Origin: a virus
Taxonomy: Duplodnaviria > Caudoviricetes
Strand: one strand, 5' to 3'
DNA length: 25,202 nt
Virus record (IMG/VR): IMGVR_UViG_3300028738_000069
Span: 1 to 25,202 of that record
The notes under the pieces are model-generated. The model was given only the letters and a program-made list of their open reading frames with translations. It did not search any database and was not told the origin of the DNA. A program made the translations under genes and the position numbers. This document shows, one piece after another, positions 16,116 to 23,569 of this stretch; positions within the stretch are counted from its first letter, which is position 1, and every line of letters begins with the position of its first letter.

Positions 16116-16141
16116 CTTGTCGGGTACATCGTTTGTTAGGC
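16116..16141 (-). other. Truncated attC (R''/L'' arm only)
   Basis: Minus strand GCCTAAC-AAACG-ATGTACCC-GACAAG matches the left arms of the other attCs; no L'/R' arm follows. Confidence 0.7.
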
Positions 16142-16408
16142 TATGCCGTTAATTATTGCCCAATCGCAAATTATCTCTGTTGCGTTTTGTTCTATGAATC
16201 CTTCTGGCGTTACATTATAAATAATCGGATTACCGCCATATTGCTTTACTGCTTTTTTTGCGTAGTATTCTGCACTCGCCTTAGACATAGTAAGAAACAC
16301 AACATCCAAATTTTTATTTCTGAATAATTCACGCAAATATCCTGTTTCAATAGATGGCATAATCCTGTCTTTTATCTGTATTGCATCCGTTGTTCCATGA
16401 AACGCCAT
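16136..16408 (-). CDS. Small ADP-ribosyltransferase-fold protein (Arr-like), gene cassette
   Basis: 'FHGT', 'VFLT...A..YA' and 'IYNVTP' follow the Arr/ART strand pattern; GAGG RBS; TAA stop lies inside the R'' site GCCTAAC. Confidence 0.6.
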   Translation of the reverse strand: MAFHGTTDAIQIKDRIMPSIETGYLRELFRNKNLDVVFLTMSKASAEYYAKKAVKQYGGNPIIYNVTPEGFIEQNATEIICDWAIINGIA

Positions 16409-16423
16409 AAGTTCCTCGCATTA

Positions 16424-16506
16424 GCCTAACGCTGAGATAATCCGCAAGCCAGTTGGCAACCCATGTAGGCGTTACTTTGGCTTGTCGGATTCATCGTTTG
16501 TTAGAC
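16424..16506 (-). other. attC site (83 bp)
   Basis: GTCTAAC-AAACG-ATGAATCC-GACAAGCCA...TGGCTTGC-GGATTAT-CTCAGC-GTTAGGC: R''/L''/L'/R' boxes, 5- and 6-nt spacers, two extra (extrahelical) bases. Confidence 0.9.
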
Positions 16507-16511
16507 GGCTT

Positions 16512-17080
16512 TTATTTTCCTGAAAGTGTTTTGAATGCAAGTGCAGCCACGCTTGGAACTTGTCCATTTCCAACTCTTGCGAGCCGCTCCACATTTCCGG
16601 CCAATTCATCATCCACTCTGCAAAGGTAGGGTGGCAAGCTATCTTCTTCTTTATTCTTCCATTCATTTCTCTCCCTGCAAAATTCTTCCACAGACCGATC
16701 AAACGATGTGAAAGACGGCTGGTGTCTTTCCAAGTCTCGCTGGATCTTAGTGGCCCCACTTCGTGAATGATCCTTGCCATTTCTGCCCACAATCCGCTTC
16801 TAGTTCCCTGTTGGATTCCTCTTCTGAATCCTGCGGGGCTGATGTCCTGGCATGGGAACCCTCCACAAACAATGTCTGCAATTCCTTTCCATGGCTTCCC
16901 GTCAAATGTGCAGACATCATCCCAGATTGGGAACCATGGCAAAGCTCCTTCTCGTTGCCTTTGAATGAGTTTGTCTCTAGCATCTTTTTCAAATTCAACT
17001 GCGCAAACTGGCCTATGTCCGAGAAGTAAGCCGCCGAGGATTCCTCCCCCCGATCCTGCAAATAAGTGTAGCTCATTCAT
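16512..17080 (-). pseudogene. C5-cytosine DNA methyltransferase with internal deletion and frameshift, gene cassette
   Basis: Motif I (LFAGSGG) and motif IV (GGFPCQD) are in the 17080 frame; motif X (RVGNGQVP) is in the 16512..16790 frame; motifs VI-VIII (ENV, RxR) are absent after 'IIHEVGP' (~16750). Confidence 0.8.
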
Positions 17081-17103
17081 TTTATTCCTGTATTGATTTG
17101 TCC

Positions 17104-17146
17104 GTCTAACACCCTAGTGACCCCTGTTTTTCACATCCCGTTATCC
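17104..17146 (-). other. attI-like site heading array 1
   Basis: Non-palindromic 36 bp plus GTTAGAC core; 36/43 identical to 22126-22168. Confidence 0.65.
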
Positions 17147-17268
17147 TGAATTTCGTCACCGTGAAATTCATTCCGTGATTCCTTTCGACTTTAGCCATTC
17201 TTTACGTTCCGAAATTCCTTCTGTTACCACTTCGGGCATTTCTCGCTCATACACTCACCTCGTTTTGT

Positions 17269-17496
17269 TTATTGTTTGATCTTGCCTATCCAGTATTGCT
17301 TTACCCTCTTCCCATTCGCCAGTTTAACCCACTCCCAGCGCACTTCCAGATTAGTGCCTATCAGTAGCTCCCGAATGTCGCTTATTCGCCTTGTGAAGCC
17401 TCCTAGCACCCCGTACAGCTTGAAAGCGTCAAGGTTAGTCAGGTACTGCGTTTCCATGTGAAGGATCATCTTATCGACTTGAGTTTTGACCATCAC
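17269..17496 (-). CDS. Small winged-helix/HTH protein
   Basis: 'LTNLDAFKLYGV...RRISDIR...KRVKQY' pattern common in phage HTH proteins. Confidence 0.6.
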   Translation of the reverse strand: MMVKTQVDKMILHMETQYLTNLDAFKLYGVLGGFTRRISDIRELLIGTNLEVRWEWVKLANGKRVKQYWIGKIKQ

Positions 17497-17699
17497 ATAA
17501 CCGCCTTATAGATTGTGAACCATACCTGTGCAATCCCATCAAACACCCGATTCCAGCCCAGAGTCAGCGTCTCAAGGCCGTAATAAAACGATCCGATGAT
17601 TGAGCCGATAGCGAGGAATCCGATGATTAGCATCAGCACCGCATCGAGTAGGATATAGTGCTTTCCGTGTGGTTGTTTGTAGTCGTTTTCAAATGTCAT
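17493..17699 (-). CDS. Small membrane protein
   Basis: Long hydrophobic segment; ATGA coupling on both sides. Confidence 0.55.
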   Translation of the reverse strand: MTFENDYKQPHGKHYILLDAVLMLIIGFLAIGSIIGSFYYGLETLTLGWNRVFDGIAQVWFTIYKAVM

Positions 17700-18583
17700 T
17701 TATTCACCCTGACGTTGATAAATGAAACAACCTTCCCTAGCAATCCTCTTACCTCAATAGCGGTTGAATTTGCTTCTAGGGTCAAAAGGGATGGAAATTG
17801 AATTGAACCAATCAATCGAGCCAATTCAAGCAACTTTTCATTATCTGGTGCAGCCTCAAATTTCTTGCGCTCATTTTCTTTTGCAATTGCTTGTTTTGCC
17901 TCAGATTCATCCTTTTCCTTTTGCTTTCGTAGTTCTTGTGCGGCCTTTGCTTGTTCTTCTGCAAGTTGCTTATTAAGTACATCCTTTTGCTTTTGAAGTT
18001 CTGCGTTTTCTAAACGAATGCGATCGTTTTCAATTCGTTCCGCTTCTTTCTTTTCTTCCTCTTGTTTTACTTCTAGTTCTTGCTTTTCTTTCTGAGAATT
18101 AGCAATTGAAATAATTCGTTCAAATTCAAAATCTGCCATCTTTCCAAGATCACCGAATGAAGGTAGAAAAACCTGATAAGAATCTAATACGGCTTGCCGT
18201 TCTGCTCGTAGCGCATCTTGGCGTTTCTTTTCCTGATTCTCTGCAAACTTTTCCTGTGTCTCTAGGTATTCCTCAATAGGAGAAATAACCGACTCAATAA
18301 GATTGTATGCGCCTTGCACGGCCTTGCCATATCGCAATGAATCCTCTTTCAATTCCTTTCGAGTCTTATCTGCATCAATGCGAATTTGGCGCATGATAAG
18401 TCTAGATTCTCTCGCAAGTTTCATTTCTGTTAACTGGGTCGCATCAGTAACAATAATTGATTTCGCTTTGTCCGCTAATTCAATTGCCCTTTCGATAAAC
18501 GGGGAAAATTTTTCCATCAACATAGATTCGGTCTGTTGCTCTACGTTTTGCTTCTTGATTTCGATAAACATTAATTCGTTCAT
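17696..18583 (-). CDS. Coiled-coil phage protein (DUF1351/Gam-like position)
   Basis: 'RIDADKTRKELKEDSLRYGKAVQ' and an E/K-rich coiled coil; in the recombination module. Confidence 0.55.
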   Translation of the reverse strand: MNELMFIEIKKQNVEQQTESMLMEKFSPFIERAIELADKAKSIIVTDATQLTEMKLARESRLIMRQIRIDADKTRKELKEDSLRYGKAVQGAYNLIESVISPIEEYLETQEKFAENQEKKRQDALRAERQAVLDSYQVFLPSFGDLGKMADFEFERIISIANSQKEKQELEVKQEEEKKEAERIENDRIRLENAELQKQKDVLNKQLAEEQAKAAQELRKQKEKDESEAKQAIAKENERKKFEAAPDNEKLLELARLIGSIQFPSLLTLEANSTAIEVRGLLGKVVSFINVRVNK

Positions 18584-18604
18584 TTTTATTCCTTTGTTTC
18601 TTGT

Positions 18605-18868
18605 TTAGAATGGAAGATCGTCGCTTGTATTTTTCTGTTGCGCCTGTTGCGCCTGTTGCGCTTGCGCCTGTGGCTTCCATGTATCCACACTCACGCTATG
18701 GGTGTTCCCCTTCTGGTCAATCTCCCTCAGAGTCCCAACATTCAGCGTTGCATACCGCTTTCCTTTGAATTCGCTTGTGTGCTCTTGTGGGATGTCATCA
18801 AGGCAGATGCGTAACCTCATACCGTACTTTGATTCTTTTCCTTTTCCGCAATAAATCACATTAGCCAT
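18605..18868 (-). CDS. SSB-like protein
   Basis: Short beta-rich domain, Q/A linker and acidic C-terminal 'DDLPF'; next to the SSAP. Confidence 0.6.
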   Translation of the reverse strand: MANVIYCGKGKESKYGMRLRICLDDIPQEHTSEFKGKRYATLNVGTLREIDQKGNTHSVSVDTWKPQAQAQQAQQAQQKNTSDDLPF

Positions 18869-19565
18869 TAGATACCCCGAACTCTTTAAGGTGATTATAT
18901 ACGTCTCTCATGTGAGACTCCGGTACGTCGTTGCATGACTCAAATCCGATTTCGCCAAGCCTTGCAATCAGTACGCTAGGCGATAGCTTCAACTTGGCTA
19001 CAGTTTCGAGGAATGCCTTTTTCTTTTCGCTAGCGAGTGGCTTTTTAAGCTCTTGCAATCGTTGGTTATCAGCGTCAATTTGTGCAAGCTTCGCATCCTG
19101 CTCTGGAGTTGACATTTCGACGGTGTACTTTGATCCATCCCAAAAGCCTGAATAGATAGCGGCTGCAACACCTAACTGTTTCATGGCAACAGAAAGCGCA
19201 TCTGTTGTTGCCATCTTATAGGCTTCATCGGAAAAATGCAGACCCCTTGTTTCGGCAGATGCAAGTCTTGACCCGCCAATACCTTCGATGGGTTCCGACC
19301 ATTCGCCTTTATACTTTACCCTCATGGCGATCTTAACGAACACGGCTATCTCTTCGCCTACAGTCCTCTCCCATCGGTCAACCTCTTTATACGCCCATCC
19401 AATACCAATAGGGCCAAACACCCTAGTCATGGCAAGGTAACGCCATTGAGGGTTAATATCGGTCATCCCCTTTAATCGGCCTGCACCAATCGTCTTTAGT
19501 GCGCCTGCTGGTGGATATGCTACGCTTTCATAGATTTCCGTATTATTGATTGATTCACTATTCAT
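18861..19565 (-). CDS. Single-strand annealing recombinase (Rad52/Sak-like)
   Basis: 'TDINPQWR...VFGPIGIGW' and 'EAYKMATTDALSVAMKQLGVAAAIY' Rad52-fold motifs. Confidence 0.75.
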   Translation of the reverse strand: MNSESINNTEIYESVAYPPAGALKTIGAGRLKGMTDINPQWRYLAMTRVFGPIGIGWAYKEVDRWERTVGEEIAVFVKIAMRVKYKGEWSEPIEGIGGSRLASAETRGLHFSDEAYKMATTDALSVAMKQLGVAAAIYSGFWDGSKYTVEMSTPEQDAKLAQIDADNQRLQELKKPLASEKKKAFLETVAKLKLSPSVLIARLGEIGFESCNDVPESHMRDVYNHLKEFGVSNG

Positions 19566-19788
19566 TTTCTCCTAGCTCCTCTTTGATAAATTCAAGTGCG
19601 TCATTTCTTGCCGTGCCACCGTTTTCAATCAGGTACATCCTTGCATCCATAAGTACATGTCGCAATCGGTCAATCTCTTTCAGAGCCTTGCACAAAGGGC
19701 ACTCTGAATCCTCAATGACAGCCATGCGCGTATAGGTCACGGTGTCATCGTGGAATTTGTTGTGCAGATCGCAAGTTCGAGTAATCAT
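19558..19788 (-). CDS. Small C/H zinc-binding-like protein
   Basis: C-x2-H ... CPLC. Confidence 0.5.
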   Translation of the reverse strand: MITRTCDLHNKFHDDTVTYTRMAVIEDSECPLCKALKEIDRLRHVLMDARMYLIENGGTARNDALEFIKEELGENE

Positions 19789-19961
19789 CTCCTGAGCTCC
19801 TCTAGTACGTGCTCAACAACTGGGTTCAGTACGGCACTACAGTTTTTGAGATTGATGACCGAATTTGTAATTTTCTTTTCAGCAACGCATAAAGGGCAAT
19901 CCGAAATCTTCTTTTCGTCCCACACAATTGCAGCGTACTTATGTTCGTGACATGACTTCAT
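19785..19961 (-). CDS. Small C/H zinc-binding-like protein (58 aa, not in ORF track)
   Basis: MKSCHEHKYAAIVWDEKKISDCPLCVAEKK...; ATGA overlaps with both neighbours. Confidence 0.6.
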   Translation of the reverse strand: MKSCHEHKYAAIVWDEKKISDCPLCVAEKKITNSVINLKNCSAVLNPVVEHVLEELRR

Positions 19962-20137
19962 TTCTTTACCGCCTTGATTGCTTTGCAGATTACCGTATCG
20001 ACTGTTGGCTTTTCGCTTTCATCGCAAGGGTTCGCAGCTTTCATCTTCTTCGCGATTGCTTTTTGCCGTTCCACTTCTTTTGCAACAAAGTCACGAGTTG
20101 CAAATTTTACCGATATTGTTGTGTAGCTTCGATTCAT
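19958..20137 (-). CDS. Small DNA-binding-like protein (RHH-like)
   Basis: Start at 20137 after AAGGAGA; 'YTTISVK' beta strand followed by helices. Confidence 0.5.
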   Translation of the reverse strand: MNRSYTTISVKFATRDFVAKEVERQKAIAKKMKAANPCDESEKPTVDTVICKAIKAVKK

Positions 20138-20154
20138 GTTTCTCCTTTTTGTGT

Positions 20155-20182
20155 AAGATAATAAATCTAAACGCAATTGCAA
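20155..20182 (-). promoter_or_regulatory. Putative sigma70 promoter
   Basis: TTGCAA-16 bp-TATCTT just upstream of the 20137 RBS. Confidence 0.4.
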
Positions 20183-20199
20183 GACAATATGCAAGAAAT

Positions 20200-20251
20200 A
20201 AATAACGCTGAGATTACCCGCACGTAGTGTCGTGTACATCGGTTGTTAGGC
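20200..20251 (-). other. attC site (52 bp), last in array 2
   Basis: GCCTAAC-AACCG-ATGTACAC-GACAC TAC GTGC-GGGTAAT-CTCAGC-GTTATTT; 49 bp identical to 20443-20491. Confidence 0.85.
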
Positions 20252-20423
20252 GACAGTTAGTTATCTGCATCCATCTATTCGCCTCCATTCTGCAATTCCA
20301 TGATTGTCTAAATGAGTTTCCTGCAAATCCGTTTATAGATTCTGATCCACATTCAAACCTAACTCCATCAGGTTCCATCATTCCGGGTTTGCATTGTTTT
20401 GCTTTGCATTTTGGGCAATCCAT
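20214..20423 (-). CDS. Cys-rich hypothetical protein, gene cassette
   Basis: AAGGA RBS after GTTAGGC; 'CPKC...FECGS...C'; reads into the attC. Confidence 0.55.
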   Translation of the reverse strand: MDCPKCKAKQCKPGMMEPDGVRFECGSESINGFAGNSFRQSWNCRMEANRWMQITNCRLTTDVHDTTCG

Positions 20424-20439
20424 AAAGTTCCTTTTGTTC

Positions 20440-20491
20440 GCCTAACGCTGAGATTACCCGCACGTAGTGTCGTGTACATCGGTTGTTAGGC
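20440..20491 (-). other. attC site (52 bp)
   Basis: GCCTAAC...GTTAGGC with L boxes; near-duplicate of 20200-20251. Confidence 0.9.
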
Positions 20492-21100
20492 TATGCCGTT
20501 AATAAGTCCAATTGCGCTGTTTCGTACTTGATACGCTTTTGCATTGCCGCAAAGTAGTCTTTGTCTAGCTCTGATCCTGTTAGGTCAAAGCCCATTTGAT
20601 GACACGCAATGGCTATGCTACCGCTTCCAAGATGCGTATCTAGTACATTATCTCCTTTCTTTGCGTAGTTGTGTAGTAACCATTTATATAGGGCTACTGG
20701 CTTTTGTGTAGGGTGAAATCTATCTAGTTGCATTGGGTTTATCTTTTTTATTCGTGTACCACCAGAGCGAACCCAAGCAAACTCGCACTCCGCAAAATCA
20801 CGCCCATACATTGTTTCTCCTTTATCCCAAATAGCAAAATACTGATTAGGAGGTAGATTAAAATAATTACCTCCCCAGATTATTTGATTTTTAGATATTC
20901 TGAACAGCTCAATAAAATATGATTCATCTGGTACTGCAGAATCCCATGTTTTTTTTTGTAGGCATTACAGTTTTACGAGATCCCATATTCATTTTATTTA
21001 CATCAATCCCATAAGGTGGGTCAACAATAGCCAGCTCGAAGTGCTTGTCTGGGTATTGAGCCATAAGCTCCATGCAGTCCATGTTTCGTAAATCAAGCAT
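20491..21100 (-). pseudogene. Beta-class N6-adenine/N4-cytosine DNA methyltransferase, +1 frameshift in an A9 run, gene cassette
   Basis: MLDLRNMDCMELM...IVDPPYG (motif IV), then 'HPTQKP' and 'LDTHLGSGS' (motif I). The 610 nt span is 3n+1; A8 instead of A9 at 20949-20957 gives an open 202-aa ORF. Confidence 0.85.
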
Positions 21101-21120
21101 CGTTTTAGTTCCTCGTATTA

Positions 21121-21197
21121 GCCTAACGCCAAAATAACCTGCCGATTTTGCGCGACCTTATGCTAACAAAATCGGTCGGGTTCATTGACTGTTAGGT
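21121..21197 (-). other. attC site (77 bp)
   Basis: ACCTAAC-AGTCA-ATGAACCC-GACCGATTTTG...CAAAATCGGC-AGGTTAT-TTTGGC-GTTAGGC. Confidence 0.9.
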
Positions 21198-21604
21198 CAC
21201 AGCCTAAAATTTACTCTATACATTTCTTGAGCCAATACAGATACTAGAGTTTCAGAATGTTCAATTCCATTCAACTGTAAAACTGCATGACACCATTCAT
21301 GTATTAAAGTTGCTTCCTTTTGTTGGTCTGGCATTTCCTTATCAATAAATATTCTTAGGTCTTTGATGTCACATCGCCCTAAAGATTCGTCGCTTCTCGA
21401 ATTTCTATCTCTGTTTACAACTTCAAAGCATAGTCCACAAATAATTATTTTTTTGTGTGAAAACTCTAATTTCATGGAATCATCTCTAATCAATTCTTTT
21501 GTTGTTAAAAATGCTATTACATTATCAACTTCTCTCGAGCATCCATTATTTTTTGACCACTCTGAAAATTCTCTCGCCAACGCACTTCTTTTGCTAAACA
21601 ACAT
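21197..21604 (-). CDS. HEXXH metallopeptidase-like protein (ImmA/IrrE-like fold), gene cassette
   Basis: 'LGRCD....RIFID....Q..ATLIHEWCHA......E'. Confidence 0.65.
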   Translation of the reverse strand: MLFSKRSALAREFSEWSKNNGCSREVDNVIAFLTTKELIRDDSMKLEFSHKKIIICGLCFEVVNRDRNSRSDESLGRCDIKDLRIFIDKEMPDQQKEATLIHEWCHAVLQLNGIEHSETLVSVLAQEMYRVNFRL

Positions 21605-21605
21605 A

Positions 21606-21815
21606 TTACTCCCTTATGTAGTTCAAAATTGCTTCCATCATCTCAACAAACTCATGCTCATCAAGTTCTAGTTTTTTACGGAAATATGAATCCACAGGTT
21701 TTTTATGTTTAAGGCTTACTAATCCATCTTTGATGGAAATTGAATATTGTGCAGCGGTTGAGTCTGCAAATAGAATTTCTCTTGATGCTATTACGCCTCG
21801 CGTAATTTCTTTCAT
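21606..21815 (-). CDS. Hypothetical protein, first gene of a two-gene cassette
   Basis: GGAG RBS 30 bp after the GTTAGGT core; coupled to the HEXXH gene. Confidence 0.6.
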   Translation of the reverse strand: MKEITRGVIASREILFADSTAAQYSISIKDGLVSLKHKKPVDSYFRKKLELDEHEFVEMMEAILNYIRE

Positions 21816-21846
21816 TTTTATTCTCCGTTAAATGTTCGTTCTGCTG

Positions 21847-21929
21847 ACCTAACTCTGAGATAATCCGCAAGCCAGTTGGTAACCAATGTGGGAATTATTT
21901 TGTCTTGTCGTATTCCTCGCTTGTTAGGC
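21847..21929 (-). other. attC site (83 bp)
   Basis: GCCTAAC...GGATTAT-CTCAGA-GTTAGGT; 70/83 identical to attC 16424-16506. Confidence 0.9.
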
Positions 21930-22091
21930 TATGTTTCCTAGTTTTCTTGCAACCAATTTCTTCTGTTCATGTTCTTGTTTCTCATATTGAGCCATTTCTT
22001 TTTTTACACGGTCATTTACTCGGTTAAAGAATTTATTTGAATACTCTGCGTTTCCAAATTGGGCTAAAATCTCGTAGATACACCCATCCAT
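21924..22091 (-). CDS. 55-aa hypothetical protein, first cassette of array 2 (not in ORF track)
   Basis: MDGCIYEILAQFGNAEYSNKFFNRVNDRVKKEMAQ...KLGNIA; AAGGTGG RBS; TAA stop inside R''. Confidence 0.6.
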   Translation of the reverse strand: MDGCIYEILAQFGNAEYSNKFFNRVNDRVKKEMAQYEKQEHEQKKLVARKLGNIA

Positions 22092-22125
22092 TTTAACCAC
22101 CTTTGTTCTTAGGGCACTCGCATTA

Positions 22126-22168
22126 GCCTAACATCCTAGTGACCCATGTTTTTTGCATCCTCTTATCC
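22126..22168 (-). other. attI-like site heading array 2
   Basis: GGATAAGAGGATGCAAAAAACATGGGTCACTAGGAT-GTTAGGC; homologous to 17104-17146. Confidence 0.65.
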
Positions 22169-22271
22169 GGACTCAACAGGGTAAAAAGTCCAGATAATCG
22201 CCCCACATTTTCCACTTTACCCGCGCATTGCGTTTTATCAATTCAAGATAAAGTGAATGAGTGACTAAATC

Positions 22272-22721: not shown

Positions 22722-23569
22722 GTGGCTGGATAAAACTACATAGGGATCTTTTAAGCTGGGAGTGGTATCGAACTCCTAATATGGTTCATTTTTGGATACA
22801 TTGCCTTCTAAGGGCCAACCACCTACCGCAAAAGTGGGAGGGAATTGACGTATTTGAGGGTCAGTTTATTTCTGGACGACTTAGTCTATCTGCGGAAACT
22901 GGTTTGTCAGAGCAAGAGATACGCACTTGCCTTGCAAGGCTAAAATCAACCAACGAATTAACCAGCATATCAACCAGCAAATACACGCTATTTACGGTAA
23001 TTTCATGGAAAAAGTACCAAATTGAAGAGCCAGCCAACCAGCAACCTAACCAACCAGCAACCAGCAATCAACCAGCAATCAACCAGCAATCAACCACAAA
23101 CAAGAATGATAAGAATGATAAGAATGATAAGAATGATAAGAAGAATACAGAAACACACTATCCTTCGGATTTTGTTTTGTTCTGGAATTCTTATCCAAAA
23201 AAGACTGGCAAGGAAGCAGCTTTAAAGGCATGGAACAAAATGAAGTTTCGTGGTGACATCGGTCATATTCTTTTTGCCGTTAAACAGCAGACCGCATCTG
23301 ATCAATGGAAAAAGGATGACGGTCAGTTTATCCCAAATCCGGCTACTTGGTTAAACCAGGGTAGATGGGATGACCAGCCGACACAGATAGACCAAAAGCA
23401 AGAGCGAAGAATACCAAACAAGGTTTACTCCGATGAACCCGCCTTTGGATCTGGAAAGGGATCAAACGAATCCGTAAGCGCATACAATGAAAGGAGGCTA
23501 CGGGAAGAGATGGAGCTTTTAAACTCAAGGGAGGCTAATAATGGATTTAAGCAGATCGGACACGATTAG
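22718..23569 (+). CDS. Replication initiator (lambda O-like / replisome organizer)
   Basis: 'MSGWIKLHR' N-terminus, HTH 'LSAETGLSEQEIRTCL', internal iterons, 'FVLFWNSYPKKTGK..A.KAW' and 'PNPATWLNQGRWDD'. Confidence 0.85.
   Translation: MSGWIKLHRDLLSWEWYRTPNMVHFWIHCLLRANHLPQKWEGIDVFEGQFISGRLSLSAETGLSEQEIRTCLARLKSTNELTSISTSKYTLFTVISWKKYQIEEPANQQPNQPATSNQPAINQQSTTNKNDKNDKNDKNDKKNTETHYPSDFVLFWNSYPKKTGKEAALKAWNKMKFRGDIGHILFAVKQQTASDQWKKDDGQFIPNPATWLNQGRWDDQPTQIDQKQERRIPNKVYSDEPAFGSGKGSNESVSAYNERRLREEMELLNSREANNGFKQIGHD
23031..23142 (+). repeat. Iteron-like repeats, probable replication origin
   Basis: AACCAGCAATC x3 (23059-23091) with degenerate copies upstream, then AAGAATGAT x4 (23102-23137). 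Confidence 0.75.

Follow-up and report, generated by a model that had tools for sequence, protein, structure and literature searches.

Gene cassettes with matched ends and unrelated cargo in two integrase-less phage attC arrays point to a probable replacement of cargo inside inherited frames

Here we describe a 25,202-nucleotide stretch of viral DNA (the window; positions 1 to 25,202 of IMG/VR record IMGVR_UViG_3300028738_000069), a 25.2-kb phage fragment with P22-like portal and coat genes whose contig is the entire record. Its minus strand carries two arrays of integron-type cassettes built around attC sites, array A (22132-20200; four cassettes) and array B (17110-16118; two cassettes), in which unrelated genes are enclosed by the same terminal sequences. 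Comparison of these cassettes with others of their kind makes it likely, at a probability of roughly 0.6, that new cassettes arise by replacement of the gene inside an existing, inherited frame, an event that was not caught in the act. An earlier note on this DNA had proposed cargo swapping within a cassette shell; what is added here is a structural stem formed by both ends, a leader inherited on the 5' side only, an attC body that is freely exchanged, cargo consisting of ordinary phage genes, and one mosaic pair. The cassettes that share ends within the window are made up as follows.

21923..22132, minus strand: body of cassette A1, GCTA frame, with a 55-aa open reading frame (ORF; 22091-21924) whose stop is the TAA of R''.
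21107..21127, minus strand: head of cassette A3, a stem arm (9 nt, an unpaired A, 3 nt) followed by a ribosome-binding leader.
20491..21100, minus strand: A3 cargo, an N6/N4 DNA methyltransferase of 202 aa in relatives, split in the window by an extra A.
20485..20503, minus strand: tail of A3, 7 nt in common with B2 plus a 12-nt stem arm ending in R''.
16410..16430, minus strand: head of cassette B2, a stem arm plus ribosome-binding leader.
16136..16408, minus strand: B2 cargo, a 90-aa Arr-like ADP-ribosyltransferase (ART; PF12120, E 1.5e-5) whose stop is the TAA of R''.
16135..16153, minus strand: tail of B2, identical to the A3 tail.

All of the strings quoted by the earlier note were found at their places on the minus strand. 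The heads of B2 and A3 (16430-16410 vs 21127-21107) are identical at 20 of 21 letters, and the tail ATTAACGGCATAGCCTAAC occurs at 16153 and 20503 and at no other place on that strand, read in different frames (INGIA-TAA vs LLTA-TAG). The 55-aa cassette starts with the same 16 nt (22132) and ends with CATAGCCTAAC at 21933-21923, so that shared ends flank three of the six window cassettes. The gene labels held as well: the 90-aa cargo matches Pfam Arr-ms (PF12120), although its E value of 1.5e-5 is slightly over the cut-off, and the adenine methyltransferase matches N6_N4_Mtase. These end matches far exceed chance for random DNA, yet most of this is structure: about 12 letters in the 19-nt tail and 13 in the 21-nt head form a single stem, one arm at each end. 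Among the 105 pairs formed by 15 cassettes of the same end type, the identical tail suffix is at most 12 nt in 87, 13 nt in 10, 14 nt in four, 16 nt in three and 19 nt in one; that one pair is the window's own A3/B2, the extreme of its family. A looser ATTAACGG-like tail extension is present in four other cassettes, and a 16-nt version of the tail, with yet another cargo, was met as a loose end. In viral contigs the exact 18-nt tail returned near-identical relatives only, as did the GCGA head pattern.

The wider sample was obtained by pattern scans of viral contigs and metagenomes, parsed into cassettes. Most of the 63 loci from the viral scan and several of the 29 from the metagenome scan were chance matches without attC, and the parser returned no cassettes from Shewanella phage arrays. 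Forty-eight distinct cassettes were first obtained; addition of c48 and removal of the window's frameshifted A3 copy (c16) again gave 48, from 17 sources, namely nine viral records (with the window phage and its near-identical relatives counted once) and eight short metagenome contigs whose ORFs look phage-like by eye. The viral records span P22-like relatives, with 25-39% identity in the capsid region, and phages without detectable homology to the structural genes of the window. GCTA, GCTG and GTAC heads served as search patterns, which inflates their frequencies; tests of inheritance were rerun without them (23 cassettes).

Across the 48 cassettes each 5' end pairs with its own 3' end over 9 bp, followed by an unpaired A at position 10 and a further 1-3 bp. 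Positions 6-9 are fully paired with the cassette's own tail in 38 of 48, against a mean of 7.5 and a maximum of 17 in 5000 shuffles of heads and tails, the remaining cassettes having single mismatches or wobbles there. The A at position 10 is present in 47 of 48 (22 of 23 in families outside the search patterns), and this position was in no case paired without the bulge (0/48); once it is skipped, the next three positions are paired in 43, 34 and 22 of 48. The shape is kept by 12 covarying sequence variants, and none of the 25 cassettes that run from attC to attC combines a head with the tail of another family. Such an outer stem is possible only in a circle or beside a neighbour of the same type (2/39). 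Its predicted energy is -19.2 kcal/mol at the circle junction vs -15.9 in the array, and lower at the junction in 37 of 39, partly by construction. Ten control cassettes (six Vibrio, two class 1, two TJE1) all pair over 8-11 bp, and the pattern of 9 bp, bulge and 2 bp is found in none of them. The suspicion that the shared termini are a generic extended stem thus proved half right: the extended pairing is generic, but the sequences are not, there being 12 variants with leaders that track them. Two other accounts of the ends were rejected. A tail produced as a templated copy of the head would carry the complement of base 10, which is present in 0 of 48 tails, and an inverted mobile unit with attC upstream of the gene does not agree with arrays that open with an attI-like site and close after a full or cut attC.

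On the 5' side the stem variants behave as inherited frames. Leaders beyond the stem (positions 14-35; the 23 cassettes outside the search-pattern families) score 8.6 within and 5.5 between frames, none of 5000 permutations giving an association as strong, and they co-segregate with stem type up to the ATG. The attC body, by contrast, is independent of the frame (identity 0.65 vs 0.66; 39 sites), and two cargos that were each seen twice had different attC bodies both times. These leaders bear on whether the frames could be convergent, that is, whether the constraint of the stem and a favoured ribosome-binding site (RBS) yield similar-looking ends in frames that share no ancestor. Convergence has in its favour that few positions are free and that an RBS and ATG are universal; it is largely refuted by leaders of 30-50 nt specific to a frame, that of GTAC including a hairpin, and by the permutation result, and we regard it as very improbable. 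The hairpin itself, small and with a TTCG loop, lies between stem arm and RBS in the heads of c36-c39 (L111, L114, L118) and is constant over four cargos.

Inside the frames the cargo is diverse. Tabulated by frame, as the earlier note had suggested, many unrelated cargos are found per frame, with 14 unrelated types among the 17 entries of the GCTA frame; the shell is therefore not limited to the cargo types of the window. One of these cargos, the A3 methyltransferase, is an ordinary phage gene elsewhere. Among 80 loci kept as homologues of the A3 methyltransferase, two are the A3 cassette, one (L200) is a cassette of another type, and 77 are without A3-family ends, two of the latter lying near other attC-like motifs by eye. 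Most of these homologues stop in a Q-x-LF-like motif (by eye), and A3 instead reads LLTA into the tail. Methyltransferase homologues of the same family also lie, in other phages, within or next to other families of attC-like sites (L200:1-1000, L190 and L221), which suggests independent captures. In the window the A3 gene is split by an extra A in the run at 20949-20957, which is absent from two related contigs and, across contigs of the eight runs, absent in five, present in one and uncovered in two. Because it is mostly missing, the gene is normally whole (202 aa), and the extra A is either an assembly error or a slippage variant.

The presence of the stop codon in R'' is a known and frequent trait of cassettes. 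Here, the last ORF takes its stop from R'' in 18 cassettes, from the tail arm in six, by reading through in 17 and from its own sequence in five, with two not called. Forty-one of the 46 called last ORFs are thus without a stop of their own, and they use all three frames of tail or attC. Since 17 of 46 read through R'' into the attC body, a change of that body alters the protein's tail.

The clearest case of a change of cargo lies outside the window, in the mosaic pair c37 and c39. Cassette c37 (G001) is 50% identical to c03, which sits in another frame, and 28% to c39, which sits in the same frame. At the same time, c37 and c39 agree over about 50 nt at the head and 68 nt at the tail, the latter stretch extending into coding DNA, and in the last coding window of c37 nucleotide identity is 0.80 to c39 vs 0.56 to c03. 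A second likeness is offered by c45, in which a promoter-like stretch and ORF match, at 85% identity over 265 nt, a locus of the same phage that lies outside any cassette. The proposal that new cassettes arise by cargo swap in an existing frame is supported, as regards reuse of frames, by this mosaic pair and by the non-cassette homologues; the pair of window cassettes that had prompted it is not a recent swap.

We envisage the following course. The cassettes are of integron type and stand in two integrase-less phage arrays, and for the excised circle their complementary ends are predicted to fold into a single extended attC stem with a bulge. A host integron integrase (IntI) would probably shuffle the arrays by moving units at G|TT; as the outer stem would form only in the circle and be under selection there, head and tail would stay matched. 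Replacement would take place at the level of DNA, with ordinary phage DNA replacing the inside of a frame: the 5' crossover would lie where RBS and ATG are similar and the 3' one at the donor's stop or shortly before it, in which case the frame or attC supplies the stop. Repeated replacement would erode the 3' side except for the selected stem arm. For a donor related to the old cargo, a phage-encoded annealing protein is plausible, though unproven, as the agent, acting otherwise than by pairing of the shared ends. A broader version, offered tentatively as a possibility short of even odds, is that phages act as cassette factories: unrelated phages of one host group would share a pool of cassettes built from their own genes, each ORF being recombined between RBS/ATG and stem arm of an existing cassette without reverse transcription, while the bulged stem, present in the circle only, would keep the ends matched and help the host integrase to integrate the cassette.

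The junctions also bear on a different account, in which the ends are halves of an extended attC and a general route joins a site variant from an inherited pool, with its leader, to a free gene or transcript, so that no cargo is replaced. Of 165 non-homologous pairs in the same frame (c16, c45 and c03 excluded), 69 align over at least 22 nt from the 5' end, and the alignment stops at -3 to +6 of the start codon in 47, further on in 19 and earlier in three. Clustering of 5' junctions at the ATG and of 3' junctions at the gene end is what ORF-precise capture predicts; tails share little past the stem, and pairing over 8-11 bp is seen in all ten controls too. Set against this, c37 and c39 have coding DNA in common inside the frame, the promoter-like DNA of c45 speaks against an mRNA route in that cassette, and attC bodies do not travel with the frame, unlike what a single site unit would do. 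On balance we think attachment of a site to a free gene rather unlikely.

The earlier note had named the phage's own Rad52-like single-strand annealing protein (SSAP), acting on the short shared ends, as the possible agent of capture. The label itself was borne out: an AlphaFold model of the 234-aa protein, with a predicted local distance difference test score (pLDDT) of 85, adopts the Rad52 fold and in Foldseek retrieves human RAD52 (E 2e-6, probability 1.0), Mgm101 and 80alpha Sak, where sequence searches gave no match. The gene is real and lies, with replication-type genes, between arrays A and B, and Rad52-like proteins are described as favouring short, diverged homology (PMC3945230). Its proposed role fares poorly. 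A non-cassette donor has no such termini; for a crossover within the shared ends the donor must itself be a cassette, and the outcome would be limited to a reshuffling of cassettes that exist already, of their positions or of attC bodies. Exact matches at the ends (19 nt; 11+9 nt) are under the pairing minimum of 23-27 bp quoted for Red-beta (PMC3945230). Furthermore, the same frames occur in phages encoding RecT or ERF and in two much larger phages, and nothing therefore ties the frames to the SSAP of the window phage. That this protein places new cargo in frames by recombining on the 19-21-nt shared termini seems to us highly doubtful, whereas an annealing protein is plausible for c37/c39, whose methyltransferases are related.

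A number of results weigh against replacement of cargo within inherited frames. The frequencies of frames are biased by the search patterns. Beyond the stem, a common frame does not make tails more alike in the unbiased set (2195 and 2881 of 5000 permutations) and does so weakly when all families are taken together (200 of 5000), so that inheritance on the 3' side rests on few pairs. The aligned pairs described above are not independent of each other, and a shared RBS and ATG bias a gapped aligner toward ends at the start codon. In the codon alignment of c37, c03 is the closer in ten of 16 windows and c39 in six, five of which are mid-gene and poorly aligned, and the likeness of c45 to its non-cassette locus could reflect transfer in either direction. 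As to the window, c48 is a homologue of A3 at 65% identity and carries the same tail, and nine full-length homologues of the ART protein were found at 70-89%, seven of which end in IN(G/S/N)IA (a comparison of proteins only). Homologues that end alike mark both A3 and B2 as old lineages. No usable non-cassette homologue of the ART gene was found in viral contigs (four loci: one identical, three weak) and no match in plasmids; nor was a recent donor-recipient pair, more than 95% identical and with both junctions, found. Among the joints of contigs from the eight runs no circle junction was present, and neither host nor integrase was seen.

Mobility is suggested by comparison of sister phages. 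In contigs of at least four of the eight runs a different first cassette directly follows the 7-nt core of the attI-like site of array A, and in at least four of eight a different attC precedes the same array end; the changes at both places fit a G|TT crossover, as a comparison of contigs and not a reaction. Joints in these contigs have unknown letters in between and are best read as other cassettes sharing the ends. G001 and the window have attC bodies in common, and loose ends in run X2 carry letters that match G001 cassettes, which fits a common cassette pool moved by a host integrase. By the definition of clusters of attC sites lacking integron integrases (CALINs; two attC sites or more, with no intI nearby, PMC4889954), array A qualifies with four sites and array B with one full and one truncated site. 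No complete integron with intI beside attI was found, a PF00589 tyrosine recombinase being present in none of ten array-bearing phage records, two of which have direct terminal repeats; the window itself is a fragment. Neither the head pattern nor the attC pattern matched any of 185,579 GTDB genomes, a search in which exact patterns can miss sites, and the B1 attC and B2 head had no match in annotated phages.

A full attC, having R'' (RYYYAAC) and R' (GTTRRRY) boxes, paired L boxes and canonical 4/5-nt spacers, is present in five of the six window cassettes, the last being truncated. A 44-nt attI-like site opens each array, the two being 84% alike, and similar sites head arrays in larger phages too. 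The remaining parts are these.

22128..22171, minus strand: attI-like site that opens array A, with its G|TT crossover predicted at 22132; over 44 nt it matches 17106-17149 at 84% identity.
21847..21929, minus strand: attC of A1, which over 80 nt matches the B1 attC (a different frame) at 86% identity.
21191..21853, minus strand: body of cassette A2, GTCA frame (G at position 10), with two ORFs of 69 and 135 aa.
21121..21197, minus strand: attC of A2, a full site.
20440..20491, minus strand: attC of A3, whose 38-nt body is identical to that of A4.
20245..20446, minus strand: body of cassette A4, GCGA frame, with a 69-aa ORF that runs on into attC.
20200..20251, minus strand: attC of A4, closing array A at its distal end, where non-cassette DNA comes after GTT.
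18861..19565, minus strand: Rad52-like single-strand annealing protein, outside any cassette, assigned by AlphaFold model and Foldseek.
17106..17149, minus strand: attI-like site of array B, predicted crossover at 17110.
16500..17110, minus strand: body of cassette B1, ACGG frame, with a C5 cytosine methyltransferase ORF that runs on into attC.
16424..16506, minus strand: attC of B1, with a body almost identical to the one behind an unrelated cassette of the GCTG frame in G001.
16118..16141, minus strand: last attC of array B, truncated to R'' and the 5' arm and followed by RBS and ATG.

The 55-aa ORF of A1 had no Pfam or PHROG match, and the 135-aa ORF of A2 gave weak metallopeptidase-like matches under the cut-off. 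A last attC cut after its 5' arm is also seen in c14 (L115), c20 (L111) and c30 (L107), with RBS and ATG or a terminator-like stretch next; it may stem from microhomology deletion into a following head, which would anchor the last cassette. The B1 methyltransferase (16472-17080) covers the first third of its Pfam profile only and has overlapping open frames, and L107 holds a longer, 248-aa non-cassette homologue (65% over 110 aa). Adjoining the SSAP gene, an SSB-like 87-aa gene (18605-18870; labelled by eye) has about 30 differences from a relative (L001/L002) that is otherwise 99% identical, an apparent allele swap. A 283-aa replication-type protein has a linker with short tandem repeats (11 + 9 nt; 23048-23146) that vary with respect to a relative. 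Rfam gave no meaningful match, and a promoter scan stayed at chance level (14 vs 13.5), for which reason we assign no Pc.

If replacement within frames is correct, it would bear on the open question of how integron cassettes are made, and the tight boundaries of ORFs, the stops in R'' and the matching of ends would be accounted for with no RNA step. Unrelated phages would then also be exchanging counter-defence genes, methyltransferases among them, by means of a borrowed host enzyme. As the cargo consists of ordinary phage genes that can be sampled in their free form too, and as frames are few and can be traced, junctions become mappable and replacement directly testable; the first cassette of a frame is left unexplained.

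In the parts of the literature consulted, the creation of cassettes is stated to be unknown in PMC4889954 (2016) and PMC5371416 (2017), and the portions seen of a 2026 preprint on cassette recovery and of PMC8876359 hold nothing on it. Our literature search found no paper on replacement of cargo in cassette frames or on an outer bulge, although older reviews on cassette ends may describe extended complementarity. The closest known system is that of Qi et al. 2023 (PMC9892861), who published phage CALINs with orphan DNA methyltransferase cargo and recombination of the attC sites of three phages by IntI1. The present arrays resemble theirs in having attC sites without intI in phages and DNA methyltransferases among the cargo, which that paper, in the text available, treats as cassettes to which phages gain access. 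The same text does not describe attI-like sites heading arrays of virulent phages, families of frames, a bulge in an outer stem, or a pool of phage-gene cassettes that unrelated phages have in common; its supplements may list further sites.

As in the attC sites of Larouche and Roy 2011 (PMC3053210), R and L boxes are present and the ends are complementary past 7 bp. The two extra bases of the R''-L'' arm, six apart, read G (38/39) and A (39/39) on the top strand; on the bottom strand this is T and C six apart (T-N6-C, extrahelical) in 38 of 39 sites, where the parser demanded G or C at the first bulge and made no demand on the second base. T-N6-C is a type of attC tested in PMC3053210. Unlike the sites covered in the part of that work considered here, the present ones carry, outside the R box, a third base that is unpaired and has more pairing beyond it, 17 of 46 ORFs read into attC, and bodies are heterogeneous and uncoupled from the frame. 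The homeologous exchange by phage Rad52-like recombinases reported by De Paepe et al. 2014 fits the c37/c39 mosaic; as given in the portion consulted (PMC3945230), it needs about 23-27 bp of exact pairing and leaves the capture of unrelated genes unexplained. Finally, fusion of cassettes by truncation of attC (PMC8876359, PMC4670013) resembles the cut last attC of array B and of c14, c20 and c30; fusion alone predicts mismatched heads and tails, whereas in the 25 attC-to-attC cassettes compared here every head stands with a tail of its own family.

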